Positions 29,140 through 56,387 of a DNA stretch of 64,000 bases are shown in pieces. Origin of the DNA: Deltaproteobacteria bacterium. GTDB lineage: Bacteria > JAGRBM01 > JAHCIT01. The notes below the pieces were generated by a model, which was not told where the DNA came from, did not search any database, and saw nothing but the letters and a program-made list of their open reading frames with translations. Made by a program: the position numbers and the translations under genes. How positions within the stretch are numbered: position 1 is the stretch's first letter; every line of letters starts with the position of its first letter. The DNA lies in contig JAHCIT010000006.1 in NCBI GenBank assembly GCA_026129095.1, positions 64,235 through 128,234 of the forward strand, written 5' to 3'.

Positions 29140-29191
29140 TGTGGCTATGGAAGCGTCACAACCCACCCATTTTCACCTCCAAAAAACGGCT

Positions 29192-33094: not shown

Positions 33095-33384
33095 ACTCAC
33101 TCATTACAGACGCCGTCCGCGAGCGCCGCGTCCTGACCTTCACCTATGATGGTTTTGAACGGCAGGTCGAGCCCTATACCTATGGAAAGCTGACGACCGG
33201 ATATGAAGGGTTGCGGGCGTTCCAGACCGGCGGCGGTTCGCGCTCCGGCAACCAGCCCATGTGGCGGCTGTTCCACGTCAACAGGATTCGCGGCCTCGCC
33301 CTGACCGAGGACCGGTTCACCAACCCAAGACCCGACTACAACCCCCAGGATTCCGACTTCCGGACCATCTGGGCGGGGGTGTGA
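33091..33384 (+). CDS. Small WYL-domain protein
   Basis: RVLTFTYDGFERQVEPYTYGKL...MWRLFHVNRIRGLALTEDRF matches the WYL-domain pattern (...Y....R.veP......WYL.a.....RtFRldRI). The ORF is 97 aa. Confidence 0.6.
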   Translation: MNSLITDAVRERRVLTFTYDGFERQVEPYTYGKLTTGYEGLRAFQTGGGSRSGNQPMWRLFHVNRIRGLALTEDRFTNPRPDYNPQDSDFRTIWAGV

Positions 33385-33387
33385 GCG

Positions 33388-34446
33388 ATGGCCAAGGGAA
33401 TAAATACTACGGGTGTACGGCTCCTTGATTACAAGGAAGTCCTGTCGTCACTCCCTGAAAAGAAGAAGCGCCACCTTCTCCTTGGGAACGGCTTCAGCCG
33501 CGCACTGCGCAACGACATTTTCTCTTACGATGCGTTGTTTGACCAGGCGGATTTCACGTCAATTGATCCCAGAATCAAGGATCTCTTCGGATCCCTTGGC
33601 ACCACCGATTTTGAAACTGTTATGCGCGTGCTTAGAGATGCATCGAACCTGATCAACGTATACTTGCCCAAAGATAAGTTGCTTGCGAATACCCTCATCG
33701 AACATTCCAATGCCTTAAAAGGCCTCTTGGCCAAAACTATTTCCGACAACCACCCCGCTCATCCAAACGAAATCAAGGAAGAGCAGTATCAGCATTGCCG
33801 CATTTTTCTGAATTCGTTCAAAGATGTTTATACGCTGAACTATGACCTTCTGCTTTATTGGACCCTCATGCACGAAGAGCTGGGAGATTCGCTTTCCAAT
33901 GATGACGGCTTCCGTACGCCAGATTCAGGTGAGCAGGAGTATGTCACCTGGGAAGTCGAGAATTCTAACAAGCAGACGGTTTTCTATCTCCATGGCGCGC
34001 TCCACTTGTTTGATGCTGGCGCTGAGCTCCAGAAATACACTTGGAAGAACACGCAGGTACGATTGATCAAGCAGATTCAAAACGCCCTCGAAGAAGACCG
34101 CTATCCACTAATCGTTGCTGAAGGAACCGCCGATGGAAAACGACGCCAGATCAAGCATAGCGGCTATTTAACGAGGGGTTTCCGCAGTCTTTCCAATATT
34201 GGCGAGACCATGATTATGTTTGGTGTTTCGTGTTCCAAACAGGATGAGCACATCCTCAAAGCGATAGAAAAGGGAAGTGGCAATGGCATCACCGATATAT
34301 ACGTAAGCATTTTCGGCGATCCCGATAGTGACGCCAATAAACGCATTATCCGCCGCGCCAAACAGATGGGAATCGCTCGGCCCAAATACCGAAAAGCATT
34401 GACCGTCTCCTTCTTTGACGCGTCAACCGCAAAGGTCTGGGGCTAA
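33388..34446 (+). CDS. SIR2-like (SIR2_2/DUF4917-type) protein
   Basis: LLLGNGFS, YTLNYDLLLYW and FYLHGALH correspond to the GAGxS, TTNYD and HLHG signatures of the SIR2-like family. The protein is 352 aa and the gene is noticeably lower in GC than its neighbours. Confidence 0.6.
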   Translation: MAKGINTTGVRLLDYKEVLSSLPEKKKRHLLLGNGFSRALRNDIFSYDALFDQADFTSIDPRIKDLFGSLGTTDFETVMRVLRDASNLINVYLPKDKLLANTLIEHSNALKGLLAKTISDNHPAHPNEIKEEQYQHCRIFLNSFKDVYTLNYDLLLYWTLMHEELGDSLSNDDGFRTPDSGEQEYVTWEVENSNKQTVFYLHGALHLFDAGAELQKYTWKNTQVRLIKQIQNALEEDRYPLIVAEGTADGKRRQIKHSGYLTRGFRSLSNIGETMIMFGVSCSKQDEHILKAIEKGSGNGITDIYVSIFGDPDSDANKRIIRRAKQMGIARPKYRKALTVSFFDASTAKVWG

Positions 34447-34448
34447 TC

Positions 34449-37400
34449 GTGAGCGATACTCTTTCTCGTCTAGACCAGCTTCGGGCCACCTGGCAGGCCC
34501 GGTTGCCGCTGTCGTCCGACGATCTCAGGCGGCTGCGCGAGCACTGGGAAATCGTTCACACCTACAACTCGAACGCGATCGAAGGGAATACGCTTACCCT
34601 CGGCGAGACCAAGGCGATCCTGATCGACGGGATCACCATCAGCGGCAAGCCGCTTCGGGAAATCCTCGAAGCCACCAATCACAAGTCGGCGATGGGGCTT
34701 CTCTACCGGCTGGCCGAGTCAAAGACGCCGCTGACGGAACCGGAAATCCTGGACCTTCACCGGCTGATCCTGAACGCGATCCGGCCCGACGACGCCGGGC
34801 GCTACCGCACAGATACGGTTCGGGTCGGTGGTTCCCGTCATGTATTTCCGAACCCGGCCAAGGTCCCGGACCTGATGGCGGAGTTTGTTGCCGGGATTGC
34901 GAAGGAAACTGGCCATCCGGTGAAAATCGCCGCCCGCGCCCACTTCCGGTTTGTCGCCATTCACCCGTTCGCCGACGGCAACGGACGTACAGCCCGTCTG
35001 CTGATGAACCTGCTGCTCATGAGGTCGGGCTATCCGCCTGCGTTCCTGCCGGTCGAACGGCGGGGCGAGTATTACGACCTGCTCGAAGAGTCTCATACAA
35101 AGGGGACGGGCCGCTTCGAATCATTCATCGCCGAATGCGTGGCGGAGTCTCTTGAAGATACGCTTGAGGGGTTGGGCGGAGTGGATGCGGCTCCGGCGGC
35201 TCCTGCCGCCGCTCCGGCAACAAAGACCAGACCGGCGGGCACGGCCGGGCGCTCGTCCCGGTGGAACGAGGAAGACCTCTCGGAGGGACCGGCCGTGGCC
35301 TTGCTGGAAAAGCTGGGCTGGACATTCATCGAGAGCGAACGCCTGAATTCCGACCGGGATACGAACCGGGACGCGATTCTGGCCAGACGGCTGGAGAAGG
35401 CGCTCCGGAGGCTGAACCCGTGGCTGTCGGACGACAATCTCCACCGGGCCGTCCGCTCGGTCACGCATATCCCCGCCACGGGCCTGATCGAGGCGAACGA
35501 GCGGGTTCACCGGACCCTCGTGCATACGCTGTCGCTGGAACAGGACCTGAACGACGGACGCGGGAAGATCGGCCGCGACGTCCATTTCATCGACTTCGCC
35601 AATTCGCGGAATAACGAGTTCGTCGTCACCCGGCAGTTCGATGTCCAGGGGGCCAATCAGCGGCGGATCTTCGATGCCGTCTGCTTCGTGAACGGTCTCC
35701 CGCTGGCGATCATCGAGTGCAAGTCGCCCACGCTCGGCGAAAAGTGGTTCGAGGAGGCGATGAAATCCCTGAACCTCTATCAGGAGGCGAAGGACGAATA
35801 CGCCGGTCAGGGCGTCCCGAAGGCGTTCGAAGCGACACAGGTGGTCGCCGCGCTTGCGGGCTCGTCCGGGGCAAAACTCGCCACCGTGCTGACTCCGGAC
35901 CGGCATTATGCCGAGTGGCGGGAGCCGTTCCCACTATCGCGGGAGGCCGTCGCTGGTCTCGTCGGCCGCGAGGTGACGCCACAGGATCTTCTGATCGCGA
36001 GCGCCCTTTCGCCGGAAAGCCTGCTCGACCTCGTTTCGAACTTCGTCGTTTTTGAACCCGAAGGGGCGAGGCGCGTCAAGAAACTCGCCAAGTACCAGCA
36101 GTTCATCGCCGTGAACCGGGCGCTAGACCGCATCAGAACCGCTCCTGACCCGGCGGCCCGTGGCGGCATAGTCTGGCACACCCAGGGCTCGGGCAAATCG
36201 CTCACGATGCTCTGGCTGGCGGTGAAACTGCGCCGGCTGGCGGCTCTGGAGAACCCGTCCATTGTGATCGTCACGGACCGTACGGATCTCGACACCCAGA
36301 TCAGCGAGACCTTTGAGCGGTGCGGCTTCCCGAATCCCCAGCAGGCGAAAAGCGTCCGGCATCTGGCCGAACTACTCGGGGCCGGATCGGGCCTCACGAT
36401 CACGACAACGATCCAGAAGTTTCAGGGCGTGTCCGGCGGCAAGCAGACGGCCCTGAACGAGGCGTCGAACCTGTTTGTCCTTGTCGATGAGGCGCACCGG
36501 ACCCAGTACAAATCGCTCGCGGCCCGCATGCGTCAGGCCCTTCCGAATGCCTGCTTCCTGGGTTTTACCGGAACGCCGATCGACAAGAACGACCGTTCCA
36601 CCCCGAAGGTTTTCGGCCCCTACATCCATACCTATCCGATCCAGCAGGCGGTGGAAGACGGCGCGACGGTTCCCATTTATTACGAAGGCCGTCTGACCGA
36701 GCTTCACGTCGAAGGCTCGTCGCTCGATGCGGTATTTGGCCGGGTGTTCGCGGACAAGTCGGATGATGAAAAGGCGGCCATCCGCAAGAAGTTCGTCACC
36801 TACGAGGCGGTCGCCGGGGCTCCGAGCCGGATCACGCGAATCTGCACGGACCTCGTCGACCATTTCGAGAAGTTCATCCGGCCGAACGGATTCAAGGCGC
36901 AGGTTGTCGCCTGCACGCGGGACGCCGCCGTCACCTACCTTGAAACGCTGGAACGGCTGGGAGCACCCGAGTGCGCGCTCATCATGTCCGGCACCCATAC
37001 GGATGAGGACCGGCTCGCACGGCATCACAAGTCCAGGGAACAGCAGAAGGAGCTGATCGCCCGGTTTATCAACAAGGACGATCCGCTTTCAATTTTAGTC
37101 GTCTGCGACATGCTGCTGACCGGCTTCGATGCGCCGGTCGAACAGGTGATGTATCTGGACAGCCCCCTCAAAGAGCACAATCTTCTCCAGGCAATCGCCC
37201 GCGTGAACCGCACGGCCGAAGGCAAGACTTACGGTCTTGTGGTGGACTACTGGGGCATCTCCGATGAACTCCAGGACGCGCTGGCCGTTTTCGATCCCAA
37301 AGACATTCAGGGCGCGCTGGTGGAGATTTCCAGCGAGCTGCCGAGGCTGGAGAACCGGCACCGGCAGGTCATGGACCTGTTCAGGAAGGTGGACCGCAAA

Positions 37401-38258
37401 GACCCGGAAGCCTGTCTCCGGATTCTGGAGCCTGAAGACCGGCGGGCCGAGTTCGAAGCGAAGTTCCGCAAGTTCGCCCAGAGCATGGACATGGTTCTGC
37501 CCGATCCCGCCGCCCTGAAGTTCCAGAAAGACCTGACCTGGCTTGGCAAACTCCGCGTCATGGCCCGTGCGCGGTTCCGCGATGATAGCCTCGATCTCTC
37601 CGGCTGCGGCGCAAAGGTCAAAAAACTCATTGAGGAATACGTACGAGCTGACGAGGTTGTCCAACTCACGGAGCCGGTTTCGATCTTCTCGAAGCGGTTC
37701 GATGAAGAAGTGGACAAGCTCAAGTCTCCGGAGGCGAAAGCCAGCGAGATGGAACACGCCGTCAAGCACGAGATCAGTGTCAAGATCTCCGAAGACCCCG
37801 TGTTCTACCAGAAACTCTCGGAACGTCTGGAGGAGATTATCCGTGACCGCAGGGAGCATCGTATCCAGGCGGCAGAGGCGATCAAGCGGCTGCAACTGGT
37901 CCTCGACGAACTCCGTGGCCGTCATCAGCAAGCGAACTCTTTGGGCCTAAGTGATGAGGAACTAGCGTTTTTCAACGCGATCCAGGCGCCGGGGAGTTCC
38001 AATACGCTCAAGGAGGAACCCGCTCCATATGGGAATGCTCACTCTCCCCAAGAGCAGGAACGGGCGAAACTCGCCGCGGAAGTTTTCGCCATGCTTAAAG
38101 AACTCGCCGTCATTGACTGGGTCCGCAAAGAGGATGTCCAGAGGGAAATGCGCCGTCAGGTCAAGCGGCGACTCCGCTTCGCTGGGTTCGGCGATGATGA
38201 GACAGAAAAACTGACCACCTCGCTGATGGATCTCGCCAGAGCACGGCTCGCGAAGTGA
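34449..38258 (+). CDS. hsdR: Type I restriction enzyme R subunit (HsdR) with an N-terminal Fic (AMPylase-type) domain fusion
   Basis: The HsdR part has the Walker A motif HTQGSGKS, the DEAH box LVDEAHR, an HsdR N-terminal region (ALLEKLGWTFIE) and a C-terminal helicase domain. The first ~230 aa contain the Fic motif HPFADGNGRTARLLMNLLL, joined by an Ala/Pro-rich linker. The total is 1269 aa with a GTG start. Confidence 0.85.
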   Translation: MSDTLSRLDQLRATWQARLPLSSDDLRRLREHWEIVHTYNSNAIEGNTLTLGETKAILIDGITISGKPLREILEATNHKSAMGLLYRLAESKTPLTEPEILDLHRLILNAIRPDDAGRYRTDTVRVGGSRHVFPNPAKVPDLMAEFVAGIAKETGHPVKIAARAHFRFVAIHPFADGNGRTARLLMNLLLMRSGYPPAFLPVERRGEYYDLLEESHTKGTGRFESFIAECVAESLEDTLEGLGGVDAAPAAPAAAPATKTRPAGTAGRSSRWNEEDLSEGPAVALLEKLGWTFIESERLNSDRDTNRDAILARRLEKALRRLNPWLSDDNLHRAVRSVTHIPATGLIEANERVHRTLVHTLSLEQDLNDGRGKIGRDVHFIDFANSRNNEFVVTRQFDVQGANQRRIFDAVCFVNGLPLAIIECKSPTLGEKWFEEAMKSLNLYQEAKDEYAGQGVPKAFEATQVVAALAGSSGAKLATVLTPDRHYAEWREPFPLSREAVAGLVGREVTPQDLLIASALSPESLLDLVSNFVVFEPEGARRVKKLAKYQQFIAVNRALDRIRTAPDPAARGGIVWHTQGSGKSLTMLWLAVKLRRLAALENPSIVIVTDRTDLDTQISETFERCGFPNPQQAKSVRHLAELLGAGSGLTITTTIQKFQGVSGGKQTALNEASNLFVLVDEAHRTQYKSLAARMRQALPNACFLGFTGTPIDKNDRSTPKVFGPYIHTYPIQQAVEDGATVPIYYEGRLTELHVEGSSLDAVFGRVFADKSDDEKAAIRKKFVTYEAVAGAPSRITRICTDLVDHFEKFIRPNGFKAQVVACTRDAAVTYLETLERLGAPECALIMSGTHTDEDRLARHHKSREQQKELIARFINKDDPLSILVVCDMLLTGFDAPVEQVMYLDSPLKEHNLLQAIARVNRTAEGKTYGLVVDYWGISDELQDALAVFDPKDIQGALVEISSELPRLENRHRQVMDLFRKVDRKDPEACLRILEPEDRRAEFEAKFRKFAQSMDMVLPDPAALKFQKDLTWLGKLRVMARARFRDDSLDLSGCGAKVKKLIEEYVRADEVVQLTEPVSIFSKRFDEEVDKLKSPEAKASEMEHAVKHEISVKISEDPVFYQKLSERLEEIIRDRREHRIQAAEAIKRLQLVLDELRGRHQQANSLGLSDEELAFFNAIQAPGSSNTLKEEPAPYGNAHSPQEQERAKLAAEVFAMLKELAVIDWVRKEDVQREMRRQVKRRLRFAGFGDDETEKLTTSLMDLARARLAK

Positions 38259-38261
38259 TCC

Positions 38262-38990
38262 ATGGTACTTCGTTCCTTCCAGTTCGGTAACACCCGAATC
38301 AGCTACCGGACGATCCGCTCCAGCCGGCGGACCACAATAGGCATTGCTGTAAAACCAGACGGGAAAGTTGTGGCTTCGGTGCCACAGGGCATAACGGTTT
38401 CCAAAGTGGACCGGGCCATTCGGTCCAAAGCCCGTTGGATCTACCAGAAGCAGCTTGAGGCGCGGGAGTTACAGTCCCAGCAGCCTTCCGGCAGGGAATT
38501 CGTTGACGGCGAGACGTTCAAATATCTGGGCCGGGGGTACCGGTTGCGGATTTCAGTGGGTCACCAGTCCGAGGTTCGTCTGATGAATGGCCGCTTAAGA
38601 GTCATCGTGGCAAACAAGCCCGCGAGTGGGCGCAAGCCTGAGCTGGTCCGTTCCGCCCTGATAGAATGGTATCGACAGCATGCGATCCAGCGTCTCGCCG
38701 AACGAATGGATTACTGGTCCAGAAGGATGGGGATATCACGTCCCAGAATGTTGCTGGGAGACCAGAATCGCCGCTGGGGGAGTTGTAGCGCGAAAGGCGA
38801 AGTCCGGATCAACTGGCGGATTATTCAGGCCCCCATGAGGATCGTAGACTATGTGATTGTCCACGAACTGGTCCATCTGATCCATCCGGATCACTCAAGG
38901 GCATACTGGAAAGCGCTTCATCGTGTCTTGCCGGATGCGCCTCAACGAAAATCCCGCCTGTATCTCATCGGCCCCGAGCTGATGTGGTGA
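38262..38990 (+). CDS. YgjP-like (DUF45/WLM-type) zinc metallopeptidase associated with Type I RM
   Basis: The HEXXH motif is in IVHELVHLIHPDHS, and RWGSCSAKGEVRINWRI is typical of DUF45. The gene starts 4 nt after the hsdR stop. Confidence 0.75.
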   Translation: MVLRSFQFGNTRISYRTIRSSRRTTIGIAVKPDGKVVASVPQGITVSKVDRAIRSKARWIYQKQLEARELQSQQPSGREFVDGETFKYLGRGYRLRISVGHQSEVRLMNGRLRVIVANKPASGRKPELVRSALIEWYRQHAIQRLAERMDYWSRRMGISRPRMLLGDQNRRWGSCSAKGEVRINWRIIQAPMRIVDYVIVHELVHLIHPDHSRAYWKALHRVLPDAPQRKSRLYLIGPELMW

Positions 38991-41659: not shown

Positions 41660-44617
41660 TCAGTCGATGCCGTAATATGCGAGCGTGAAAAGGCCCAACT
41701 GGTTCTTTCGCTTTTGGTTCTCAGTTAAATTATCGTCATCTTTCACGGTTCGAAGTGCCGTAATCGCAGCCTGTTGAAAAACACTGCTTGGTAAAAATGC
41801 GCCTGATGAGACTGACTGTTCCATAAATATCTGGACAAACGTACGAATCAGGTTTGTCTGTAGCGGTGCGAGACCGGCAATAACACCTCTGGCTCCCTGG
41901 GCCAGGAATGCATCGGCCACAGTCTCCTTGTGCAGATGGTCGGTTTGCCGGCGGTAGGCAGCTGAACATGCGAACAAGGCCACGGTAGTACCGTTAAAGG
42001 AGATGCCTGATGATTCGATATCCGTGCGACGAAGGCGTAATCCGCCCGGCAATGCGAGGCTGGAACGGGCCGGATCCGCTTCATCGAAACCGTGAGTAAT
42101 AATCGTGGCCAACTGGCTTCTGGAGATTGCCTGCAATACGTCTTGAACGGAGGAGATGTCCCAAGAATTACCTGGTGGTGAAGAGTATACCATTATCGCA
42201 CGATACAGCTCTGGCTCAAAAAGATTATAATTCCCGGATTTCGCGCTTAAGGTCGTTCTGTTGGTATCAGTAGCGAAGAACGGAGAGACCATGGCAGGGG
42301 TGATTACAGAAGACTGGAAGTTTTTGATGAAAGGTTCATTCTTCGATCCACAAGGAAGCCACTGTATGGGTAAATCCATCAGCTCGGCATCCACACTAAG
42401 GTATATATGCTTGGGTTTATGCTGATTTAGACAGGAGAGTAAACTGTTAGGGAAAAGCTTCTGTCCGATGATCAGCAATTTCCTATATAGCAAGTCCACT
42501 ATTTTTTCATTGGGTTGTTCATCCTTGGTACAAAGATGAATGAGATTTGGCAACGCCTGATCGGGATGGACAAGCTGTCTAAGAAAATCCCTTACAATAT
42601 TGTCCTTTTGAATACATTCTCGGATTTTGGCGAAATCAGATTTTCTCGCGTTATCTAGTTTTATGATATCTGTTTTACAGTTATCGTTTCCATTGTTTCT
42701 GGTTAACAAACAGAATGAAGTATTGTTTTCATTGATAAAGTAATGAACGGCAATGGATCCAGGATTTTTATTTACAAGATCGTATATCCTTTGACCGCCC
42801 CAAAGCTTGAAATATAATTCCGAAAGCTGATCACCTGCGGAGACGGTCGAAGCTCCATTTAAAACAGACTCTACATAGCCAGCAAATACCGGTTTTTCAT
42901 TCAACGATATATTGAGTAATCTTGTCCTCTTATTGGGTATCCACTGCATCTGCTTCTGAACAAGACCCGTATACAGCTTGCACAAGCCAGATGGAGTACC
43001 TCTTCCAGACTTTTTAATCAGCATACGGGTCACTTTCAAAATCTCACTCGAATGAAACAAACTATTACTGTCGGAAATTTTCTGCATTTTCGTGACTAAA
43101 TCATTGATCGCGTCCGTCTTGATGGACCGGACACTCTTTAGCTTTAATTTGATAGCCTGTAAATGCGAATTGTATAGTTGAAATGTTTTTGAAGGATTGT
43201 CATCCGATGGAATATATAATAGATTTTCCCAATTATGTCTTTTTAGTTCCTTTACTTCAGTATGGTTATTGTTTTGATCAAGGATCCCAAAGTTTGCGCT
43301 CTCACCGAGGCCATGCCATGTCGTTCGGTCGCCGTACACATGTTTCAAATAGGCAATAAAGTAATTCGCCCGTTGTCGTGTCTGCCCATCGTTAATCCAG
43401 TTCGACAGCATGAACTGGTAATGAAGCAGTTCAACGAGTGCATTGACATCAAGATTCCTGGACACCAGTTCGAGCTGCCGGTCGATAACTTCAGATGCAA
43501 GGCTGAATTTCATGGAGTGAAGCAGACGTGTCAATACGTAGCGTACATTTTTTGCTGAGAAAGGTTCGCTTGAGTTTTGGGCGGTAGCTTTAGCGGTTGA
43601 TGGGTCAGTGCATGACAATATCGAATTAATATCCGAGGACACTTGACATTCCAGAGGTGCTGCTTGATGCGACAAAAGAATGGGTGAAGGATTCGCCAGT
43701 TGGGTATCGATCTGATCAGCTTCAGCGGATAAGACCTGCTTTTGAGGCTGATCGAGGCTTGCGCGGTTACTTGCTAATTTGAGAATGGAGGCGCGATTAT
43801 TCCAGTCTCCATACAAGTAATATTCCCCAACCTTAAGATATTCCATAGTATTATTCGCAAATGGCGGATGTTTTCCTGCACTGATAACAGGATTCAGACT
43901 GGACCATAGCGATTGGATCGCAGTATCCATGTGACTGAGTTTAAGAACAGATATGATTAAAACCGGATATTCTTCTTTTAATATGATAAGTTTGGAATGG
44001 ATTCCTGATGGAGTGGTATTTGCGGGACCGGACAATGCGCAGTGGAGTAACTCTTTTAGTCCGTCATCGTCAATTATCATCTCAGTGTCTGTACGAAGGT
44101 GGAGAACTTGGTGGGTCAGCCAGTATGAATAATGGCGCACACTCCGCTGGGAAGAAATTGTGCCTGGAAACTGAATGCTACCGAGAATCTTTTTCACCGT
44201 GTTCGCGATGCCTTTGACCTTGGCAATCGTGTTTTCATGTTGCTCTGGCTGAACCTCCAGTACGGAAGAGGCGAGAAACATGATCGCCATTCCCAGCCCG
44301 GCGCGGTCGAGTGCATTGAGATGGGAAAATCTGTGAAATCCGGCGACTAAATCGCCAAATGCATTTACCTTTTCAACGTCGGTGTAATCTTCGATTGAGT
44401 TTAAAGAATCTGATAGCGGATCTGGGCTGGTGTTATTATTAACTATGTGGTCGACGATCGTCATTGTTTGTAGACCAGGAGTAACTAAATTCAGGTGGCG
44501 ATTGTTATCAGGCCCCGTTGGTGTCTTCTGCTTTTTGAAGACGGAACAGCCATTTAATATTCCGACGCATTTTAGAAGTTGGTTTGTCTTGAAAAATAAC
44601 TGAAGTCGTGGACTCAT
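41660..44617 (-). CDS. Large protein with C-terminal CHAT (caspase-like) protease domain; the true start may be the internal Met near 44466 to avoid overlap with the upstream gene
   Basis: The C-terminus has ATIITHGFDEA (His motif), TTVALFACSAAYR (catalytic Cys motif) and VADAFLAQGARGVIAGLAPL, which match the CHAT-domain signatures. The ~700-aa N-terminal region is unassigned. GC content is about 45%. Confidence 0.65.
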   Translation of the reverse strand: MSPRLQLFFKTNQLLKCVGILNGCSVFKKQKTPTGPDNNRHLNLVTPGLQTMTIVDHIVNNNTSPDPLSDSLNSIEDYTDVEKVNAFGDLVAGFHRFSHLNALDRAGLGMAIMFLASSVLEVQPEQHENTIAKVKGIANTVKKILGSIQFPGTISSQRSVRHYSYWLTHQVLHLRTDTEMIIDDDGLKELLHCALSGPANTTPSGIHSKLIILKEEYPVLIISVLKLSHMDTAIQSLWSSLNPVISAGKHPPFANNTMEYLKVGEYYLYGDWNNRASILKLASNRASLDQPQKQVLSAEADQIDTQLANPSPILLSHQAAPLECQVSSDINSILSCTDPSTAKATAQNSSEPFSAKNVRYVLTRLLHSMKFSLASEVIDRQLELVSRNLDVNALVELLHYQFMLSNWINDGQTRQRANYFIAYLKHVYGDRTTWHGLGESANFGILDQNNNHTEVKELKRHNWENLLYIPSDDNPSKTFQLYNSHLQAIKLKLKSVRSIKTDAINDLVTKMQKISDSNSLFHSSEILKVTRMLIKKSGRGTPSGLCKLYTGLVQKQMQWIPNKRTRLLNISLNEKPVFAGYVESVLNGASTVSAGDQLSELYFKLWGGQRIYDLVNKNPGSIAVHYFINENNTSFCLLTRNNGNDNCKTDIIKLDNARKSDFAKIRECIQKDNIVRDFLRQLVHPDQALPNLIHLCTKDEQPNEKIVDLLYRKLLIIGQKLFPNSLLSCLNQHKPKHIYLSVDAELMDLPIQWLPCGSKNEPFIKNFQSSVITPAMVSPFFATDTNRTTLSAKSGNYNLFEPELYRAIMVYSSPPGNSWDISSVQDVLQAISRSQLATIITHGFDEADPARSSLALPGGLRLRRTDIESSGISFNGTTVALFACSAAYRRQTDHLHKETVADAFLAQGARGVIAGLAPLQTNLIRTFVQIFMEQSVSSGAFLPSSVFQQAAITALRTVKDDDNLTENQKRKNQLGLFTLAYYGID

Positions 44618-45584
44618 CTCCGGGAACGATTAAGACTTCATTTAGTGTTGCGTTGCTCCAAACTGGCTTCGCCAAAAGACTAAAACCTTTAGGAGGGAGA
44701 GAATTGACGATCCTGAATCTGACTGCCATATTATCCTTTTCAGACTTTTCAAATACCTCTAATTTGAGAGTGGTATTGGGGTTGAAACGTAATATTATAA
44801 CTCCCTCCCTGACCCCTCTAGGTCTTTTGTGAATAGCCCTATCCTCCCCCATCTGAATTTGGGCTTCATGGCGTATGGAGGGGGGAAATAAATTAGGATG
44901 CACATAGGTGCACTCTTTGAAAGCTGACGGTTCGGCGAGATCGTCTTGCGGGTCGTCTTCTTCTGCGTCCGCCATATCCGGATTGGTAGCCGCCTCCATT
45001 ATTTCCTGTATCGCTTTCCGGATCCGGTTGTCGATCTCGATGGATCCGGGGACATCCAGAGGAAGCAGTCGTGCGAGGCTTTGGTTTACTCGGGTTGTTT
45101 CGGCTGCACCCCCCAGAATGCAATTTTCCTGCAAGTCGACGTATTCAACCAGGGCGCGGGAAACCTGGGCGTAATCTTCCGGGGTGACTTCACCGATTAC
45201 CGATACGCCGGAGTTCCCGGTGAGTGCGCGATGCGGTACCGTGACGGTCAGATTGACCTTGGCATGGAAGTCTTCGTGGATTGCCGGATACAGGGGAGCG
45301 ATGGCCGCAGGGTTCCCCGTTACCAGCGGGACGATCTGCGGGGGAGGGTGTTGGGTATCAACCGGCATGCCGTAGTCCGCGCCCGTGATCAGGAAGCAGC
45401 AGCTGCCGGATTCCGCTGGACTGTCTCCGCCGCAAACAATGACGGAACCGTGCGCAAGCCCGCCAGCGGTTTCATCCGTAGTAGTCATTGCCTTCTCCAG
45501 ACGAGTGAGCATATTTTTTGCGTTGAACTTATCGAGTAATTGGTTCTCTTCAGCTTTTGAATATCCGGTACTCATTTGGTACAT
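44508..45584 (-). CDS. Hypothetical protein
   Basis: A 358-aa ORF between the ECF sigma gene and the CHAT gene on the same strand, with overlapping junctions. No motif was recognised. Confidence 0.5.
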   Translation of the reverse strand: MYQMSTGYSKAEENQLLDKFNAKNMLTRLEKAMTTTDETAGGLAHGSVIVCGGDSPAESGSCCFLITGADYGMPVDTQHPPPQIVPLVTGNPAAIAPLYPAIHEDFHAKVNLTVTVPHRALTGNSGVSVIGEVTPEDYAQVSRALVEYVDLQENCILGGAAETTRVNQSLARLLPLDVPGSIEIDNRIRKAIQEIMEAATNPDMADAEEDDPQDDLAEPSAFKECTYVHPNLFPPSIRHEAQIQMGEDRAIHKRPRGVREGVIILRFNPNTTLKLEVFEKSEKDNMAVRFRIVNSLPPKGFSLLAKPVWSNATLNEVLIVPGDESTTSVIFQDKPTSKMRRNIKWLFRLQKAEDTNGA

Positions 45585-46222
45585 TCTCCTTGGGACTTTT
45601 CAATTTCGTCTAAATAACGATGAAGGCCCCCTCTAAGGCTAAGGGCGGCCTGTCTCTTGCGTTTTCCATCTTCGTCGCCAACGAATTGGGCGCTGATGTT
45701 TTTAAGCTTCTCGATCAGGTTATCCTTGCGGCGCGAGATGGTCGCCTCGCTAACGCCACCCAGATCGCATTTGAGTAACCGGTAGGTCAGTTCTTTCCGG
45801 TAGATTCCGTAAAGCAGCTTTTGGTCAAACTCGTCCAACTGTTCCCTCAAGAGGTCATAAATCTTATCTGCATCCGGGTCCGATTCCTCGCCGGAAATCG
45901 CCGGACCGGTATTTCCAATATCATCGGTAAGGGGATCTGTCGCAACCGGTATGGCGTGTTTTTCTTGATCACGTTTCTCAGCCCGGAGAATATCGCTCAT
46001 CCTCCATTTAAATAGGACCCAGATTTTTGAATTAACTATATCCCCTATGAATATGTTCGCGTTTTCAAGCGTCTGGCGCGTAGCTGTTATGCGTTGATTC
46101 TGATATACGGATAAAATGACTTGGCTGAAATCATCTTCAATCTTTTCCCGGCTTTTATACGTAGTTCCATAGAAGCGTATGAACGCCCGGTAAAGATCTT
46201 TGAGCCTGGTCTCATCCATCAT
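45572..46222 (-). CDS. ECF-type sigma-70 family RNA polymerase sigma factor
   Basis: Region 2-like IEDDFSQVILSVYQNQ and region 4 HTH LTYRLLKCDLGGVSEATISRRKDNLIEKL are present. The ORF is 216 aa. Confidence 0.6.
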   Translation of the reverse strand: MMDETRLKDLYRAFIRFYGTTYKSREKIEDDFSQVILSVYQNQRITATRQTLENANIFIGDIVNSKIWVLFKWRMSDILRAEKRDQEKHAIPVATDPLTDDIGNTGPAISGEESDPDADKIYDLLREQLDEFDQKLLYGIYRKELTYRLLKCDLGGVSEATISRRKDNLIEKLKNISAQFVGDEDGKRKRQAALSLRGGLHRYLDEIEKSQGECTK

Positions 46223-46731
46223 ACTGTACGCGCCCCGATTCGTTGATGCTCAACATACCGGTAGCGGCTCTTCATCAATCTTGCCAAAACGGTGGGACTT
46301 AGCCGGCCCAAATAGGTCCATTCATCAATATGAGGTGGGGGGAACGGGAGCCCAAAGCATTCCAGATCGGCAATCAGAAACAAAGGTACATTAGGAAGTG
46401 CAGGCTGACGATCCTCAATATCGGTATCGGAACTGATTCCGAGAATGGCGGTGTCGTGAGGCCGACTGTCATATGTTTTCCTATAGTCACACTCTGCGCT
46501 GTCCCTATTTGTGTAGAACCATAAAATGCGGTTTGAGATACCGCTTGATAGAACGGCCCCTAGACCATTGCGACGCCATGCACCTGCCGCCAGGTATTGA
46601 ACACCGACAGCGGCCTGAGTCTCTGTGGCTAACGATATGTTGCCCATATTGGGTGGCACATGGCCGGTCGGTGCTACCGGAGTTTCTTTCGACGCCAAAG
46701 CCCTACGGATCTTTTCGATTAAGTCTTTCAA
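46219..46731 (-). CDS. Hypothetical protein, first gene of the ECF-sigma/CHAT operon
   Basis: A 170-aa ORF whose stop overlaps the sigma gene start. No motif was recognised. Confidence 0.45.
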   Translation of the reverse strand: MKDLIEKIRRALASKETPVAPTGHVPPNMGNISLATETQAAVGVQYLAAGAWRRNGLGAVLSSGISNRILWFYTNRDSAECDYRKTYDSRPHDTAILGISSDTDIEDRQPALPNVPLFLIADLECFGLPFPPPHIDEWTYLGRLSPTVLARLMKSRYRYVEHQRIGARTV

Positions 46732-47775: not shown

Positions 47776-48387
47776 ATGAATCGCACTAACTCAGAACTGA
47801 CCGAAGCATTCCTCCATTTCCGGCGGGCCTATTTCCCCCGCCGGTTGAATGACTGGCGGGCCGTCGATCTTCCATTGGGTATCGGCGGCTACGCGGATTT
47901 CCTGGCGAAGGAGATCGCAGTCGATGTGGAGGCGCATCGGAAGCGGAAGATTCCGGCCGGATATACGCTGTTTCACGAAATGTGTCACGCCGCCGCCGGG
48001 CCGAACGACAATATGGATGCCGATGGCCACGGCACACCATTCCTGCGAGAAGTTGACCGTCTTCTTGCCGCAGGCGCGCCGTGGCGGATTTCATTCGGCG
48101 AAGTGGTCTGGGCGAATCGCCTGGTCGTTGAGCGGCTCCGTTTCCGGCATGTCCGCACGGCGCTGCTTCCTCTCTTTGTCAAACCTCCTTCACCTTGGAT
48201 GACCCCAAGCCGTGAGGCCAGAACGCTGGCGCTCAAGCGATGGTTCAGGCAGCACCCCACGGTGACGCTTGGGAAAATCGTCGAAGAGTTCGGAGTGCAG
48301 ATCGGCATTGTCGACCTCGACGGGCGAAAGATCCGTTCCGAGGCGTGGCTGTATGAGAAAGCCAGGGAGCTCTGGGGTGATGAGTGA
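47776..48387 (+). CDS. SprT-like zinc metallopeptidase domain protein
   Basis: TLFHEMCHAAAG carries an HExxH motif, with a downstream His (DADGHGTPF). Confidence 0.5.
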   Translation: MNRTNSELTEAFLHFRRAYFPRRLNDWRAVDLPLGIGGYADFLAKEIAVDVEAHRKRKIPAGYTLFHEMCHAAAGPNDNMDADGHGTPFLREVDRLLAAGAPWRISFGEVVWANRLVVERLRFRHVRTALLPLFVKPPSPWMTPSREARTLALKRWFRQHPTVTLGKIVEEFGVQIGIVDLDGRKIRSEAWLYEKARELWGDE

Positions 48388-49015
48388 AATCGCACCGCGG
48401 TGGATATTGGCGATTGGCAGCCTGGCCGCAAAAGGTGTCGGCTGCCCGCAAGCTGTGCCGGTAAGGCTCGTCAACTGGCGCCGGGGTTTCTATGCCCGTG
48501 TCAGCGATCACCATGCGACCGGATTGGGCGCCGTCCCGGCGCCGGGGGCGTCACTCAACGGCGTATTGTTGCCGATCGGGGTTGTCGGCGAGACTATCAA
48601 AGATATCGATGAGCGCGAGGCGGTATCGGACCTTTCCCGCCGCGATCTCAATTCGGTCGATCTCCATCCCTATTCCGGCTTTCAGGTCCCTCGACTCAGA
48701 CCGGGTGAAACAGTCGCGATCTACACCCCGAACAATATCCTGCGGCCGGCACCAGAATATCCAGTCCTTCGGAGTTACATCGATGTCTGCTTCGACGCCT
48801 TCAAGGCATTCGGGAGTGAAAAGGGGGTTGGCGGCAAACTGTTTGCCGAAGATTTCCTACGGACCACCGACCCCGAAAGCTGGAAGCCGATTGCCGATGA
48901 CCGGGCCAGGCCGCTTTACCCGCGCTACGTACTGCTGGACCCGGAAACGCCCAATTACGTCGATGAGCTATTACGGCGGCTAGGATTGCCGGGCCGCCGA
49001 AACCCACCCGACTAA
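48380..49015 (+). CDS. Hypothetical protein; the ORF is listed from 48269, and the internal start MSEIAPRW at 48380 avoids overlap
   Basis: The ORF is 211-248 aa with no recognised motif. Confidence 0.4.
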   Translation: MSEIAPRWILAIGSLAAKGVGCPQAVPVRLVNWRRGFYARVSDHHATGLGAVPAPGASLNGVLLPIGVVGETIKDIDEREAVSDLSRRDLNSVDLHPYSGFQVPRLRPGETVAIYTPNNILRPAPEYPVLRSYIDVCFDAFKAFGSEKGVGGKLFAEDFLRTTDPESWKPIADDRARPLYPRYVLLDPETPNYVDELLRRLGLPGRRNPPD

Positions 49016-49041
49016 GCTATTTTCCCCTGAACCCATGGATT

Positions 49042-49166
49042 GGATGACAATGTTACGCCGTTGCTTGACGCTCTCGCCAAAATCCCCGACAGGCCCGGTC
49101 CCGCTGGGCTTGAGCAGGCGCTTGATGAGGCGGGGTCCTGGTATTGGCTTCCGCAGTTCCGAATGT
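49042..49166. repeat. ~125-bp direct repeat, copy 1; it duplicates the 3' end of ORF 50609-50920
   Basis: The region is about 85% identical to 50800-50924. It encodes the peptide NVTPLLDALAKIPDRPGPAGLEQALDEAGSWYWLPQF, compared with NVAPLLDALAKIPDRSGPAGLEQALDEAGGWYWLPQF in copy 2. Confidence 0.8.
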
Positions 49167-49224
49167 TCGAACTGGGTAAAACGCCAACGCGAGAACATGA
49201 GAAATCCGTGAAGATGCGGTTCAG

Positions 49225-49785
49225 CTATGCCCCGGAGCCGTTTAAGAGGTCAAAATAGGAGACCGGCACGGAGTCCTCGGGGTTCAGTTTTAAGATCCGT
49301 GCGACTTCCTCGAACTCCGCAACGGTGTCAGCGCGATCCTGTCCGGAAATGACGGTTTCAATCTCGACGAAGGTGCCGAGCCCCTCGACGTCATCGAGGT
49401 GAATGCGGGTATTACGGAATAGGAACAGATGGCGTGTTTTCCTGACCGAACCCTTCGTGCCCAAGGCCTGTTCCAGGATTGCCTTGAGGCCTTCCAGCGC
49501 CGTTGAGTGGTAGACGAAATATTCGCTTTCCCGGCCGCCCGGGACGTCCGACCGTCGATAACTAATCAGTTCACCGCGCCCGTCACCAAATTCACGTAGC
49601 TTCAGGCGGGCATGCTCTGCCTGAAAGAACGTGTCGCACTGATGCAGCAGGCCCATATCTCGGGCACCCAGCTTACGAGTCTTTCGTTCAATGGCCGCTA
49701 TGTCACCGTACCGGAACTTCGCTTCGATATTTTTCACTGTCGCCTCGTTCGCGCCATCTTCGAACAATGGCAATTGGCCTTGCAA
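49225..49785 (-). CDS. CYTH-domain protein (class IV adenylate cyclase/CyaB-thiamine triphosphatase family)
   Basis: The ExExK signature is in KNIEAKFRY, followed by FVEIE and acidic clusters typical of the triphosphate tunnel metalloenzyme fold. The ORF is 186 aa. Confidence 0.6.
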   Translation of the reverse strand: MQGQLPLFEDGANEATVKNIEAKFRYGDIAAIERKTRKLGARDMGLLHQCDTFFQAEHARLKLREFGDGRGELISYRRSDVPGGRESEYFVYHSTALEGLKAILEQALGTKGSVRKTRHLFLFRNTRIHLDDVEGLGTFVEIETVISGQDRADTVAEFEEVARILKLNPEDSVPVSYFDLLNGSGA

Positions 49786-49935
49786 TTTATTGTGGAACTG
49801 GTCCGAAAAACTGCTATAATTTCTTTACTTCTCGGGTGCTGTCCGCTGCCATTTGGCAGGGCCCTACCAAACGACTCGGCCTCCAAACCAATGGGCGCCG
49901 GGTCGTTCCATTAGAATTATCAACGATTTTGAAAC

Positions 49936-50505
49936 ATGAATGTCTATTTGGTCCGGCATGGTCAAACTCAACCAAACATCGATGGTCCGACGGGCGTCGT
50001 GCAGGGGCAGCTCGACACTGACCTTAACAATGCAGGCGAAAATCAGGCGACTCAGCTTGCGAAGGAGTTGGAGAAAATCTCTTGGGAAGCTGTGTACAGC
50101 TCTACGTTAAAACGAGCGATTCGGACGGCAGAGATTTTGGTTCGCGGCCGGCACCCGGTTCTCCAGGTCGCCGGTCTTAACGAACGGCACTGTGGCGACT
50201 GGCAGGGTCGAAAGCGTTCTGATCTTGCTTGCGAGCTGGGATACTCGGACCTGATTGCATTCTGGAAAGCGCTCGGGCCTCATTTCGCTCCACCTAGAGG
50301 GGAAACATTCGATCAGATGGTAAGCCGGTCCGTAGCGACCTTTGAGCAGATCATCTCGGGCCACCCAAGAGATTCGAATGTCCTGCTGGTATCGCACGGT
50401 GGGCCGATTCGGGCGATAACCGGTCACCTCAGCGGGCTGTCGATAGAAGAGGTCTGGCAAATGCGTGGGCCCGAAAATTGCGAGGTCATACGAGTCGCAG
50501 TGTGA
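49936..50505 (+). CDS. Histidine phosphatase (phosphoglycerate mutase family) protein
   Basis: The N-terminal motif is VYLVRHGQT (RHG), with a conserved His in VSHGGPIRA. The ORF is 189 aa and lower in GC. Confidence 0.7.
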   Translation: MNVYLVRHGQTQPNIDGPTGVVQGQLDTDLNNAGENQATQLAKELEKISWEAVYSSTLKRAIRTAEILVRGRHPVLQVAGLNERHCGDWQGRKRSDLACELGYSDLIAFWKALGPHFAPPRGETFDQMVSRSVATFEQIISGHPRDSNVLLVSHGGPIRAITGHLSGLSIEEVWQMRGPENCEVIRVAV

Positions 50506-50608
50506 ATCGTAAGGTGATTGAATTGGATTAGCCGGAGGCGACTGAAACGAATTTGTCTGGAGCAGACTTTGAAGAGCATCTCGCTTCCATGATGGCATCG
50601 GAATTGCT

Positions 50609-50920
50609 TTGATTTCACCGAAGGGGGTTGCAACCGTGGCCGACAACTATCCGGAACTGATTGGCCGCCTTCATTCCGAACTGAAGCGGATCGGATGTAT
50701 GAGCTGGCAAGCGGACTCGGGAGACTACACGGTCTATGAAGTTTGCCGGTCGCCTCAGGACGGTTGCGACACTCGTCTGAAGACTTACACTCAGGTCTTG
50801 GACGGTAACGTCGCGCCGTTGCTCGATGCTCTCGCCAAGATCCCCGACAGGTCCGGTCCTGCTGGACTTGAGCAGGCGCTCGACGAAGCAGGGGGCTGGT
50901 ATTGGCTTCCTCAGTTCTGA
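50609..50920 (+). CDS. Hypothetical protein whose C-terminal 40 aa are duplicated at 49042-49166
   Basis: A 103-aa ORF ending at the WYWLPQF motif at the repeat boundary. Confidence 0.4.
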   Translation: MISPKGVATVADNYPELIGRLHSELKRIGCMSWQADSGDYTVYEVCRSPQDGCDTRLKTYTQVLDGNVAPLLDALAKIPDRSGPAGLEQALDEAGGWYWLPQF

Positions 50921-50924
50921 ATGT
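50800..50924. repeat. ~125-bp direct repeat, copy 2
   Basis: See 49042-49166. Confidence 0.8.
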
Positions 50925-51765
50925 CCGGATTGAGTAATAATCTTATGCGTGAAGTTTCGGATAGCGGCGAACTTGAGCCCATCGTACGGTGGGTAACGCA
51001 GTTCGTTGCCGAACGGGAAATTACATTCGCTGAACTGGACGAGGTCGGCTGTCCGCCGGTAGCTGCACTCGCCTATGTTTCATTTCTGATGACGGGTTCG
51101 ATATCGATCCTACGGCAGGATCTGGACGACGAACAGGCTCTTGCGGCGGTGAGAGAAGTGGGGGGCGTCTACATTCGACGGACCTCTCGGCGATCGGCTG
51201 TTTAAACTACAGGACGGTCCGCGAGAACCCCGTTTTGGCGAGGACCTGGAAACGACGCGGCGTTTCGGGAAAAGTGCGAGGGTTCGCCCGTAGAGGAATC
51301 TGCCGAAATCTTCACGGTGATCCTTTCGGACCCGGATGGTTACTCGCTCCCGCGCGGAGAATCATTTTCAGCGCTCGCTGAGGTCGGAGAAAGATTCTTT
51401 GTTGGAATGAAGGCAGCGGTCGCAACCGGCAGGCGGCACTAAACCAGTTAATTTCGTTTGTCTCTGCCACCCGCCGAGCAAGGCGAAAAAATATTCGTTC
51501 CCTCAATATGCGTCAGAAATGTACGACGGGCCGTTCGCTTAATGGCTTGATTTTTGATGGGGGGGGGTATCGTCCCGATCTGACGAAAGTAATTCGGAGG
51601 ATCGGGCATGCGTTCGCACAACCTGGTGGTCGCTGGCGATTGTGCCATTGGAGGCGAGGCTTTGGATTGGCACTGACGGAGCTTCAAGCACCTGTCGGCG
51701 AGTAATAGACTAGAGGCGGCATCCGTTGGTTCAGGTGCCGGGGTTATGGCTGAGAGCGCCCCGTT

Positions 51766-54243: not shown

Positions 54244-54615
54244 ATGAATCCGGGCACACTGACGCTGGCCGATCTCCTGCAATCCCCGGAACGGATTGCG
54301 GACCTGCCGGTTGAATCGGTGCCGTCCTTTCTGGCTCAGCTGACCACGCTGCAATCCGGTCTGTATGCGAGGCTGCTGCTGCACCCGGCAAGACCACCGG
54401 TAGAGGCCGAGACGAATGAAGACGACCGGTGGCTGACTGCCGAAGAGGCGGCTCCGCTCCTCGGCGTGACGCCCCGGTGGCTCTATACTCGCTGGAGGCA
54501 GCTCCCGTTTTCCAGAAAGCTTTCCCACAAGGTGCTGCGCTTTTCGGAGAAGGGCATTCGCCGGTATCTGGCGGGAAAGGCCGGGAGACCGGTCGCTGTT
54601 GAGGTGAACCGGTGA
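54244..54615 (+). CDS. xis: Excisionase/AlpA-like HTH DNA-binding protein
   Basis: EEAAPLLGVTPRWLYTRWRQLPFSRKL...VLRFSEKGIRRYL is a helix-turn-helix of the excisionase type. It sits immediately upstream of, and overlaps, the integrase. Confidence 0.55.
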   Translation: MNPGTLTLADLLQSPERIADLPVESVPSFLAQLTTLQSGLYARLLLHPARPPVEAETNEDDRWLTAEEAAPLLGVTPRWLYTRWRQLPFSRKLSHKVLRFSEKGIRRYLAGKAGRPVAVEVNR

Positions 54616-56387
54616 GCGAACGCGGGATGGGGTCGGTGTACCGCCGGGGTAAAATCTGGTGGATTAAGTATCACTTCCGGGGGAAACCGTTCCGGGAGTC
54701 GTCGAAGTCGCCTGTTCGTAATGACGCCGTGAAGCTGCTTCGCAAACGTCAGGCGGACATGGGCAGGGGCCGGTTTGCTGGGCCGGACCCGGAACGAACC
54801 GTTCTCGGCGATCTCGCCCGGATGATGATCGATGATTACGAGGTGAACGGGCGAAAGTCGTTGAAGCGCGCCAAACTGAGCCAGGCCCATTTACTCGATT
54901 TCTTCGGCAACGCCCGAATCATCGATATCACCCCGGACACGGTCAAGGCCTATATCGCGCACCGGCTGCGGGAGAAGGCGGCGCATCAGACCGTCAAGAC
55001 CGAACTCGTTACTCTTAAGCGGATGTTCCGTCTGGGCGAACAGGTCGGCCGCGTTGATAAAATCCCATATATCCCGACCATCAAGGTCGAAAATATCCGG
55101 CAGGGTTTCTTCAGCGACGCCGAATTTCGCGCGATCTGTTCAAACCTGTCCGACGACATTCAGCCGCTTGCGAAGTTCGCGTACCTGACCGGGTGGCGGC
55201 GCGGAGAAGTTCTGACGCTCACCTGGCGGCAGGTGGATTTCGACGCCGGGATTATCCGTCTCGAACCCGGCACGACCAAGAACAAGGAAGGCCGGATATT
55301 TCCGTTCTCGGTGTTGCCCGAGCTTTGCGACCTCATGGTTGAGCAACGGCAGCGTACCGACGCGATTGAGCATGAACTCGGCAGGATCATTCCTTGGGTG
55401 TTCCACCGTAGAGGGAAACCGGTCAAATATTTCTGCTCCGCATGGTATAACGCGGGCAAAAAGGCGGGGGTGCCGGGGAAGCTTTTCCATGATTTCCGCC
55501 GGACAGCCGTGCGCAGGATGGAGAGGGCCGGCGTTCCTCGAAGCGTCGCCATGAAGCTGATCGGTCACAAGACCGAAAGTATTTACAGGCGATACGCGAT
55601 TGTGGACGAGGGCGACCTGGCAGCCGGAGTGGAAAAACTGGCGGTGCTCAGGGAAAAAGAAGCCAAACAGCCCCGCACGGTAGTGCCGATGGCCCCGGCG
55701 CGTCTGGCGGGGTCGGATCTGGGTTTGGGCACAATTTGGGCACAAAAGCCGGAAAAGATGAGGGAAAACCCGGCCCGCCGTGTCTGGAGTGACCGCGCAC
55801 TCCGGCGATATTGTTCAGGGATTTATGGTGCCCCCGGACGGAATCGAACCGTCACGGCCGTGAAGCCAGCGGTTTTTGAGACCGCCCTGTCTACCAGTTC
55901 CAGCACGGGGGCATGGCGGGAAAAGACGCCGGTATGGAGCACGGCGCCGCACCCGGAGTCAACGATAGCCGGCAACAATGGCGGGAGCCGCCATGTGTCA
56001 GGCCCGCTCTCGGGCGATATCGGCCGGGGTGGACGGCAAGGGCTCGGCTTTCGTGTACCACCAGGCCCACAGGATGAAGATCGCCTGGAATGGCAGGCGT
56101 GCCCAGCGCTGGAGAGGCTCGGGCTGGTTCATCCATTCCGGCAGGCCCTCAAGCTGGACATTGCTCGTCGCCATGTAGATATTGGCCGGGAACACGGCGA
56201 CCAGCAGTGCGATGATTCCCCAGGCCGAGAGCTGCGAGTAGCGGGGGAACAGCACTCCGGCGCCGAGAACGATCTCCGCCACCCCGCTCAGATAGACCAG
56301 TTCCAGGTGCCAGGGCAGCCAGGGCGGCATGATCTGGACGTAGAACTGCGGCACGACGAAGTGCATCACTCCCGCGAAGATGTATAG
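54612..56387 (+). CDS. int: Tyrosine-type site-specific recombinase (phage integrase family); the catalytic domain lies within ~54612-55700 and the in-frame read-through to 56387 is doubtful
   Basis: The N-terminal SAM-like domain has IWWIKYHFRGKPFRES. The catalytic residues are R (LTGWRRGE), the HDFRRTAVRRMERAGV box and Tyr in ESIYRRYA. There is no in-frame stop before 56387, so the ORF overlaps tRNA-Leu and DoxX on the opposite strand. Confidence 0.75.
   Translation: MSERGMGSVYRRGKIWWIKYHFRGKPFRESSKSPVRNDAVKLLRKRQADMGRGRFAGPDPERTVLGDLARMMIDDYEVNGRKSLKRAKLSQAHLLDFFGNARIIDITPDTVKAYIAHRLREKAAHQTVKTELVTLKRMFRLGEQVGRVDKIPYIPTIKVENIRQGFFSDAEFRAICSNLSDDIQPLAKFAYLTGWRRGEVLTLTWRQVDFDAGIIRLEPGTTKNKEGRIFPFSVLPELCDLMVEQRQRTDAIEHELGRIIPWVFHRRGKPVKYFCSAWYNAGKKAGVPGKLFHDFRRTAVRRMERAGVPRSVAMKLIGHKTESIYRRYAIVDEGDLAAGVEKLAVLREKEAKQPRTVVPMAPARLAGSDLGLGTIWAQKPEKMRENPARRVWSDRALRRYCSGIYGAPGRNRTVTAVKPAVFETALSTSSSTGAWREKTPVWSTAPHPESTIAGNNGGSRHVSGPLSGDIGRGGRQGLGFRVPPGPQDEDRLEWQACPALERLGLVHPFRQALKLDIARRHVDIGREHGDQQCDDSPGRELRVAGEQHSGAENDLRHPAQIDQFQVPGQPGRHDLDVELRHDEVHHSREDV
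55826..55912 (-). tRNA. tRNA-Leu (anticodon CAA), type II with long variable arm
   Basis: The reverse-complement sequence is GCCCCCGTGCTGGAACTGGTAGACAGGGCGGTCTCAAAAACCGCTGGCTTCACGGCCGTGACGGTTCGATTCCGTCCGGGGGCACCA. It has a 7-bp acceptor stem, the anticodon loop CTCAAAA, the T-loop GGTTCGATTCC and a CCA end. Confidence 0.85.

Follow-up and report, generated by a model that had tools for sequence, protein, structure and literature searches.

Probable recombination scar between diverged orphan-gene alleles beside CYTH and histidine phosphatase genes in a tRNA-Leu integrative island

The window analyzed here is a 64,000-nt stretch of the 259,610-bp contig JAHCIT010000006.1, which belongs to a metagenome-assembled genome (MAG) of a Deltaproteobacteria bacterium. 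It contains divergent genes for a CYTH (triphosphate-tunnel) protein and for a histidine phosphatase (HisPhos), which are bracketed by two direct repeats, copies A and B, and followed by two small genes termed B and C. This locus is part of the cargo carried by a 28.8-kb integrative island at tRNA-Leu. We consider it probable (about 0.7) that the region is a mosaic junction in this cargo and that the repeats are the scar of a recombination that joined diverged alleles of one orphan gene. The two enzymes are ordinary accessory cargo of the island. The features of the locus are as follows; L001 is a related locus described below.

48380–49015, plus strand: left neighbor gene with a weak ChaC/gamma-glutamylcyclotransferase-like match; its stop lies 25 nt before copy A; not common to L001
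49040–49195, plus strand: repeat copy A, an apparent relic made up of the 40 C-terminal codons of gene B and what remains of ~12 codons from the start of gene C
49225–49785, minus strand: CYTH/triphosphate-tunnel protein (MCW5829650); likely GTG start at 49737 (170 aa)
49786–49935, no strand: CYTH/HisPhos divergent intergenic region, 48% GC; 198 nt long if CYTH starts at 49737
49936–50505, plus strand: histidine phosphatase (His_Phos_1; MCW5829651), PhoE/CobC-like
50506–50635, no strand: spacer between HisPhos and gene B, 48% GC
50636–50920, plus strand: gene B, an intact 94-aa orphan (MCW5829652, KIT79_10095); open reading frame (ORF) open from 50609
50798–50953, plus strand: repeat copy B, spanning the 40 C-terminal codons of gene B, the TGAATG at which B stops and C starts, and ~12 codons from the beginning of gene C
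50921–51445, plus strand: gene C, with an ORF at 50921–51205 and two compensating indels relative to its 167-aa L001 orthologue

Direct repeats

A first-pass annotation of this DNA had described two repeats of about 125 bp and about 85% identity as a duplication of the 3' coding end of a small gene. The repeats are real. A repeat search paired 49031–49195 with 50789–50953 (165 nt, 79% identity, spacing of 1758 nt), and a self-blastn search of the complete window with this region gave a single pair (140 nt, 82.9%, E=2e-36) and no further copies. In a base-by-base alignment the best boundaries were 49040–49195 and 50798–50953, corresponding to 156 nt at 80% identity, with 84% across the 127 nt cited earlier and 62% across the next 29 nt. 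The copies do contain the last 40 codons of gene B, but they also extend past the stop into gene C, covering ~12 codons at its start. The peptide quoted for the repeats was correct; it corresponds to LDDNVTPLLDALAKIPDRPGPAGLEQALDEAGSWYWLPQF in copy A and to LDGNVAPLLDALAKIPDRSGPAGLEQALDEAGGWYWLPQF in copy B, which are identical in 36 of 40 residues.

Copy A is truncated. Its homology to gene B ceases at 49040, 25 nt past the stop of the unrelated gene at 48380–49015. The stop codon has changed from TGA to CGA, and the reading frame continues into the antisense strand of the CYTH gene. The sole candidate start is the TTG at 49040, upstream of which no obvious ribosome-binding site was seen and from which the frame is open for 72 codons (49040–49258); the exact 72-aa translation had no match in a collection of 15 billion protein sequences.

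Over these 40 codons the two copies are 84% identical. The 14 synonymous and 5 non-synonymous differences between A and B give a dS of ~0.8, a dN of 0.057 and a dN/dS ratio of 0.07, which derives from 40 codons only. Most of this divergence appears to have accumulated while both copies still encoded the peptide. The pairwise identities of the gene B 3' ends are 80% for A and B, 83% for A and L001, and 83% for B and L001. Because the changes are mostly synonymous and the distance between A and B is about the same as that to the L001 orthologue, we infer that A and B are diverged alleles joined by recombination.

Related loci

So far, the CYTH-HisPhos block has been seen in three loci that are 84–89% identical. 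L001, on contig CAZMGV010000032.1, carries P0002, a CYTH relative that is 89% identical; L002 is an identical sub-sequence. Beyond P0002, the relatives of the CYTH protein fall to 58% identity. The setting of L001 is also of the mobile-element type, with integrase, HTH_17, AbiEii and SLT genes, and its gene order is two methyltransferases, B, CYTH (on the opposite strand), HisPhos, an FGase-like amidohydrolase, a kinase and the 167-aa C. This kinase exceeds the NCBIfam pyridoxamine-kinase cut-off (337 versus 231 bits). Homology between the window and L001 is limited to 49056–50507, 50614–50953 and 50968–51443, and the flanks differ on both sides.

L001 has a single gene B. Behind its stop come ~36 nt left over from the C start, the same remnant as behind copy A, and then the 3' end of CYTH; the left junction is therefore common to the window and L001. 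The C-start remnant between B and CYTH also means that the enzyme genes of L001 sit ~36 nt inside C. In the window, this "filled" left junction (between copy A and CYTH) occurs together with a B-C junction at copy B that is uninterrupted. In the spacer between HisPhos and B, homology to L001 is interrupted: its HisPhos block matches up to 50507, and the region upstream of its gene B matches from ~50570. At the flanks of the L001 cassette, ~9 of the first 12–13 nt of the C start match; a true target duplication, in which the duplicated C start flanks this cassette, was considered and set aside, as a match of this length is too weak to claim.

Further features of L001 were recorded. As a second scar of similar type, a 37–45-nt copy of the B start region lies at 13645–13681, 2.8 kb upstream of B, with two methyltransferase genes and one for a GerE-type regulator bracketed in between. 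A 251-aa ORF (5098–5853, minus strand) without a Pfam match abuts the integrase gene as if truncated; it starts with MAAKTVLGLDLGTNSIGW, which we take to resemble a Cas9 RuvC-I motif.

L084 is an 1808-bp Logan contig from an independent sample (SRR19361207). Its HisPhos is 79% identical and is followed by the same spacer and by B, an arrangement collinear with that of the window at 83.5% identity. Its ends overlap by 29 nt inside the repeat, which is the expected outcome of an assembly graph when two repeat copies share a k-mer. The repeat copy beside CYTH has a 1-nt frameshift eight codons before the stop. CYTH itself is disrupted, residues 34–136 being replaced by unrelated AT-rich DNA, and the phosphatase is intact. 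This insert of ~330 nt (270–600) encodes a 64-aa ORF with a CxxC...CxxxC arrangement, which is zinc-ribbon-like and had no Pfam match. At a further locus, L083, a phosphatase with 61% identity occurs without a CYTH gene, beside an HTH_17 gene and an integrase-like gene.

Host island

The boundaries of the island are defined by the following features.

27026–27081, no strand: left att repeat, which reproduces the 3' half of tRNA-Leu perfectly over 56 nt
54612–55824, plus strand: tyrosine integrase with a Phage_integrase domain, reading toward the tRNA; ORF open through the antisense tRNA to 56387
55826–55912, minus strand: tRNA-Leu(CAA), whose 3' half (55825–55880) is the right att repeat

The att repeats at 27026–27081 and 55825–55880 are 100% identical, with 0 matches expected by chance, and enclose the 28.8-kb island (27082–55824), which has a GC content of 56.3% compared with 62.9% outside. 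Both defining features of a tRNA-integrated island are thus present: the integrase gene lies beside a tRNA gene, and each end of the island carries a direct repeat derived from the 3' end of that tRNA. An Rfam scan found tRNA only. The segment between the repeats had been described as lower in GC; this is correct for the mean (54.4% versus 56.3% for the island), but the difference is marginal, and the dip comes from the two non-coding spacers at 48%, both enzyme genes having 56%.

The locus resembles the mosaic cargo of other tRNA-integrated islands in several respects: a tyrosine integrase beside the tRNA, perfect att repeats derived from the tRNA 3' end, a GC content below that of the host, a mixture of defense and metabolic genes, and gene fragments at recombination joints. 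It is unlike them in that the common unit (B, CYTH, HisPhos and C) comprises just 2.4–4 kb in otherwise unrelated elements, and in that both small genes are orphans.

Such a small block, consisting of orphan B, CYTH, HisPhos and orphan C, would move among otherwise unrelated islands. In the window, a piece of a "filled" block would have been placed directly upstream of an intact, uninterrupted B-C pair, this piece beginning with the 3'-terminal 40 codons of a diverged B allele and continuing through the C-start remnant and CYTH up to the HisPhos stop. Illegitimate or inter-element recombination may have joined the two diverged alleles of the same gene end. Copy A would then be a diverged B allele that arrived with the CYTH-HisPhos piece and was cut off at the joint, and it may now be a decaying relic, which has lost its stop in the window and acquired a frameshift in L084.

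CYTH protein

The CYTH gene product gave a full-length match to PF01928 (63.3 bits versus a gathering score of 23.2, E=3e-17). The domain had been identified correctly in the first-pass annotation, but the motif quoted as EIEAKF reads NIEAKF. The protein has the motifs NxExK (NIEAKF), RxKxR (R60-L-K62-L-R64) and ExE (E141-I-E143). It carries the database name class IV adenylate cyclase, and CyaB and YpAC-IV, which are cyclases of this class, belong to the same fold family.

Three determinants have been described for true class IV cyclases, namely, HFxxxxExExK, in which HF lies four residues before ExExK, a small neutral residue that replaces the first Arg of xRxR, and a C-terminal ExE in which the second Glu is strictly Ala, i.e., ExA (Vogt et al. 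2021, PMC8233210). All three were absent. The window protein has N13 and E14 at positions -6 and -5, and HF was found in 0 of 78 members of its subfamily; the basic K62 is kept where the cyclases have a small residue, RxKxR being present in 77 of the 78 relatives; and the C-terminal motif retains both E141 and E143, as ExE does in all 78 relatives. The protein also stayed below the cut-off of the TIGR00318 cyaB equivalog (39.4 versus 57.95 bits), with a match in the C-terminal half only.

The closest solved structures, as judged by profile matches, are archaeal proteins of the SaTTM cluster, and YpAC-IV scored lower. The best profile matches were SaTTM Saci_0718, P. horikoshii 2DC4 and P. furiosus 1YEM, which likewise consist of a single CYTH domain of ~170 aa. 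Like the archaeal and CyaB-like triphosphate-tunnel metalloenzyme (TTM) triphosphatases, the window protein combines basic tunnel residues with an ExE motif on the last strand. It differs from them in that its subfamily has NxExK for ExExK and RxKxR for xRxR. Of the two hallmarks of TTM triphosphatases, ExE on beta-8 for two-metal catalysis is present, but ExExK is not. Judging from the cyclase determinants, the protein would most likely be a metal-dependent triphosphatase and not a cyclase; given the invariant Asn in the ExExK position, it is a putative triphosphatase-type TTM. NxExK is present in 78 of 78 relatives from other genomes, i.e., the Asn is invariant.

The single-domain NxExK subfamily is widespread, with members in Dormibacterota, Latescibacterota, Gemmatimonadota, Planctomycetota, Chloroflexota, Poribacteria and others (loci L004–L082). 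A CYTH relative is encoded in at least 526 of the 600 candidates retrieved among species-representative genomes. An exact look-up of the P0001 protein returned no record.

Histidine phosphatase

The prediction of a PGAM-family histidine phosphatase with an RHG motif was borne out by a match to PF00300 (160.9 versus 21.7 bits, E=4e-47), so that profile searches support the family assignments of both enzymes. The catalytic residues R7, H8, R60, E83 and H154 are all present, align to those of PhoE and are invariant in 4 relatives. The best matches were G. stearothermophilus PhoE and CobC. The protein is most likely a PhoE/CobC-like phosphomonoesterase, as suggested by this full catalytic set and the RHG motif, which it has in common with PhoE/CobC-type phosphatases. 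Unlike these, it lies below every equivalog cut-off, including that of the CobC alpha-ribazole phosphatase TIGR03162 (120.9 versus 162.9 bits).

An exact look-up of the HisPhos protein found no record, and no match was found in IMG/VR. In PHROGs it matched only a family of unknown function, and a metagenome scan with the HisPhos profile retrieved relatives at ≤37% identity only.

Conservation of the gene pair

The pairing of CYTH and HisPhos is not conserved outside this one block. The idea that the two genes might occur together elsewhere was examined around 79 CYTH relatives (38–58% identity) in 872 kb of sequence; no His_Phos_1 ORF was found within 6 kb of any of them using phmmer and a four-sequence profile at E values of up to 1. 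These relatives also have no other conserved partner, any neighbor family occurring in ≤16 of the 79 loci. Around 80 distant relatives of the phosphatase, there was one locus with a canonical ExExK CYTH gene, at a distance of 2.9 kb or four genes, which was judged coincidental. PADLOC models gave 0 matches for 10 proteins of the pair and its neighborhood, and a literature search found no paper on this gene pair. The kinase and amidohydrolase that accompany the block in L001 would point to small-molecule phosphate metabolism and not to signaling.

Alternative explanations

The first-pass annotation read the arrangement as an insertion that had duplicated its target or as a small repeat-flanked cassette. 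Some observations agree with a mobile cassette inserted in this way, or with one excisable through its repeats: the two genes are flanked by direct repeats, the L084 assembly is a loop containing the cassette and a single repeat, and a brief stretch of the C start may be duplicated at the larger cassette of L001 (9 of its first 12–13 nt match). We nevertheless regard this origin as unlikely. A duplicated target starts identical, and a non-coding copy drifts neutrally. Target-site duplications are short, initially identical repeats that come with a mobility gene or inverted repeats, whereas here the copies are 156 nt long, 20% diverged, chiefly at synonymous sites and with a low dN/dS, and the truncation of copy A is one-sided. 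No transposase, recombinase, terminal inverted repeat or attC-like element was found in the 1.6-kb segment by repeat, domain, PHROGs and Rfam scans. Homologous excision between the copies is unlikely because the longest run identical in both is only 15 nt, and any two-copy repeat gives a loop like that of L084 in a de Bruijn graph. Part of the first-pass reading stands, in that the two enzyme genes do travel together as a small block, seen in the three loci. A partial duplication of B in situ, with copy A kept as a functional short ORF for the conserved C-terminal 40 residues, could account for the strong conservation of the peptide (36 of 40 residues despite a dS of ~0.8) and for the 72-codon ORF from the TTG at 49040. 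It is made improbable by the TTG being the only start, by the lack of an obvious ribosome-binding site, by the lost stop and the entry of the ORF into CYTH antisense sequence, by the frameshift in the L084 counterpart and by the absence of the exact translation from the protein collection; moreover, the distance between A and B is no smaller than that of either copy to L001. The tandem arrangement could also be an artefact of metagenome assembly that fused two strain variants, given that the window comes from a MAG and that the two indels in gene C, one of them in a G run, could be assembly errors. This is very unlikely: the join of HisPhos, spacer and B recurs at 83.5% identity in the independently assembled sample of L084, so that the window arrangement should not be an assembly artefact, and copies at 80% identity are too diverged for strain variants of one locus.

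The suggestion that the two enzymes might make and break a second messenger, possibly in a defense context given the restriction-modification (R-M) and CHAT genes of the island, did not hold up and is now highly improbable. The two genes are divergent neighbors with one common intergenic region in three loci, the database name of the CYTH protein is that of a cyclase, and the cargo of the island is of the defense type. However, the CYTH protein lacks the HF, small-residue and ExA determinants and misses the cyaB cut-off, and PADLOC recognized nothing. Histidine phosphatases of this family cleave phosphomonoesters, not cyclic phosphodiesters, and would not open a cyclic nucleotide. Furthermore, the searches around the CYTH relatives in 79 other genomes and the 80 distant phosphatase relatives revealed no real pairing, the phosphatase occurs alone in L083, and in L084 it is intact beside a broken CYTH gene. 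A more far-reaching possibility, to which we give little credence, is that B, the NxExK CYTH, HisPhos and C, together with the FGase-like amidohydrolase and pyridoxamine kinase in L001, form a self-contained, horizontally moving module that acts on a triphosphorylated small molecule. The NxExK CYTH subfamily would then use a novel substrate or chemistry, with the orphan proteins B and C as partners, and the repeated pieces of B, present both in L001 and in the window, would mark a hotspot at which such modules are rebuilt.

Several points weigh against the mosaic junction that we favor. The dN/dS ratio was obtained from few codons. An uninterrupted form of the site was sought in homologous islands, as initially suggested, but an empty B-C site did not turn up in any separate genome; both small genes are confined to loci with the block, and they may belong to it rather than to the island backbone. 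There are three loci only, one of which, L084, is a 1.8-kb loop, and the order of the rearrangements is not reconstructable. The Asn in place of the first metal-binding Glu of ExExK would leave even a triphosphatase activity of the CYTH protein uncertain.

Other features of the locus and the island

Gene B has only two homologues among 5.8 billion proteins. A full HMMER scan with B against 1.84 billion representatives gave just weak multi-stretch matches to long proteins, which were judged non-homologous, and B had no match in IMG/VR. An AlphaFold2 model of B from 3 sequences had a pLDDT (predicted local distance difference test score) of 50 and was unusable. Compared with its L001 orthologue, gene C has a +1 indel in a G run (~51157) and a -1 indel (~51245), leading to a stop at 51203; it is either a pseudogene or affected by MAG assembly errors. 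A metagenome scan with gene C gave no match. The CYTH/HisPhos intergenic region contains no sigma-70-like promoter match, and a promoter and terminator scan found nothing exceeding the shuffled expectation. A phage DNA collection searched with 6 kb around the locus returned no match.

Elsewhere in the island, a type I R-M locus (29129–38990) comprises two HsdS genes, HsdM and a 1269-aa HsdR with an N-terminal Fic domain. A DUF4917/SIR2-like gene (33388–34446) lies between HsdS and the Fic-HsdR, and a gene for a YgjP-like peptidase follows HsdR. At 41660–46731 (minus strand), the gene for a 985-aa CHAT-domain protein precedes three unannotated ones (358, 216 and 170 aa) in DNA of low GC content (~50%); these genes had no PADLOC or Pfam match. 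Outside the island, positions 1–6500 and 9267–11105 of the window consist of long repeat arrays with a 318-nt period and minus-strand coding, which resemble a large repetitive surface-protein gene. A topoisomerase VI B-like gene is also present in this bacterial contig.

Implications

The locus is probably a case of ordinary island mosaicism, and it matters mainly as a correction of the ideas of a cassette with target duplication and of a cyclase-phosphatase signaling pair. The point of wider note is the NxExK CYTH subfamily, which is labeled as class IV adenylate cyclase, yet fails every published determinant of that class.

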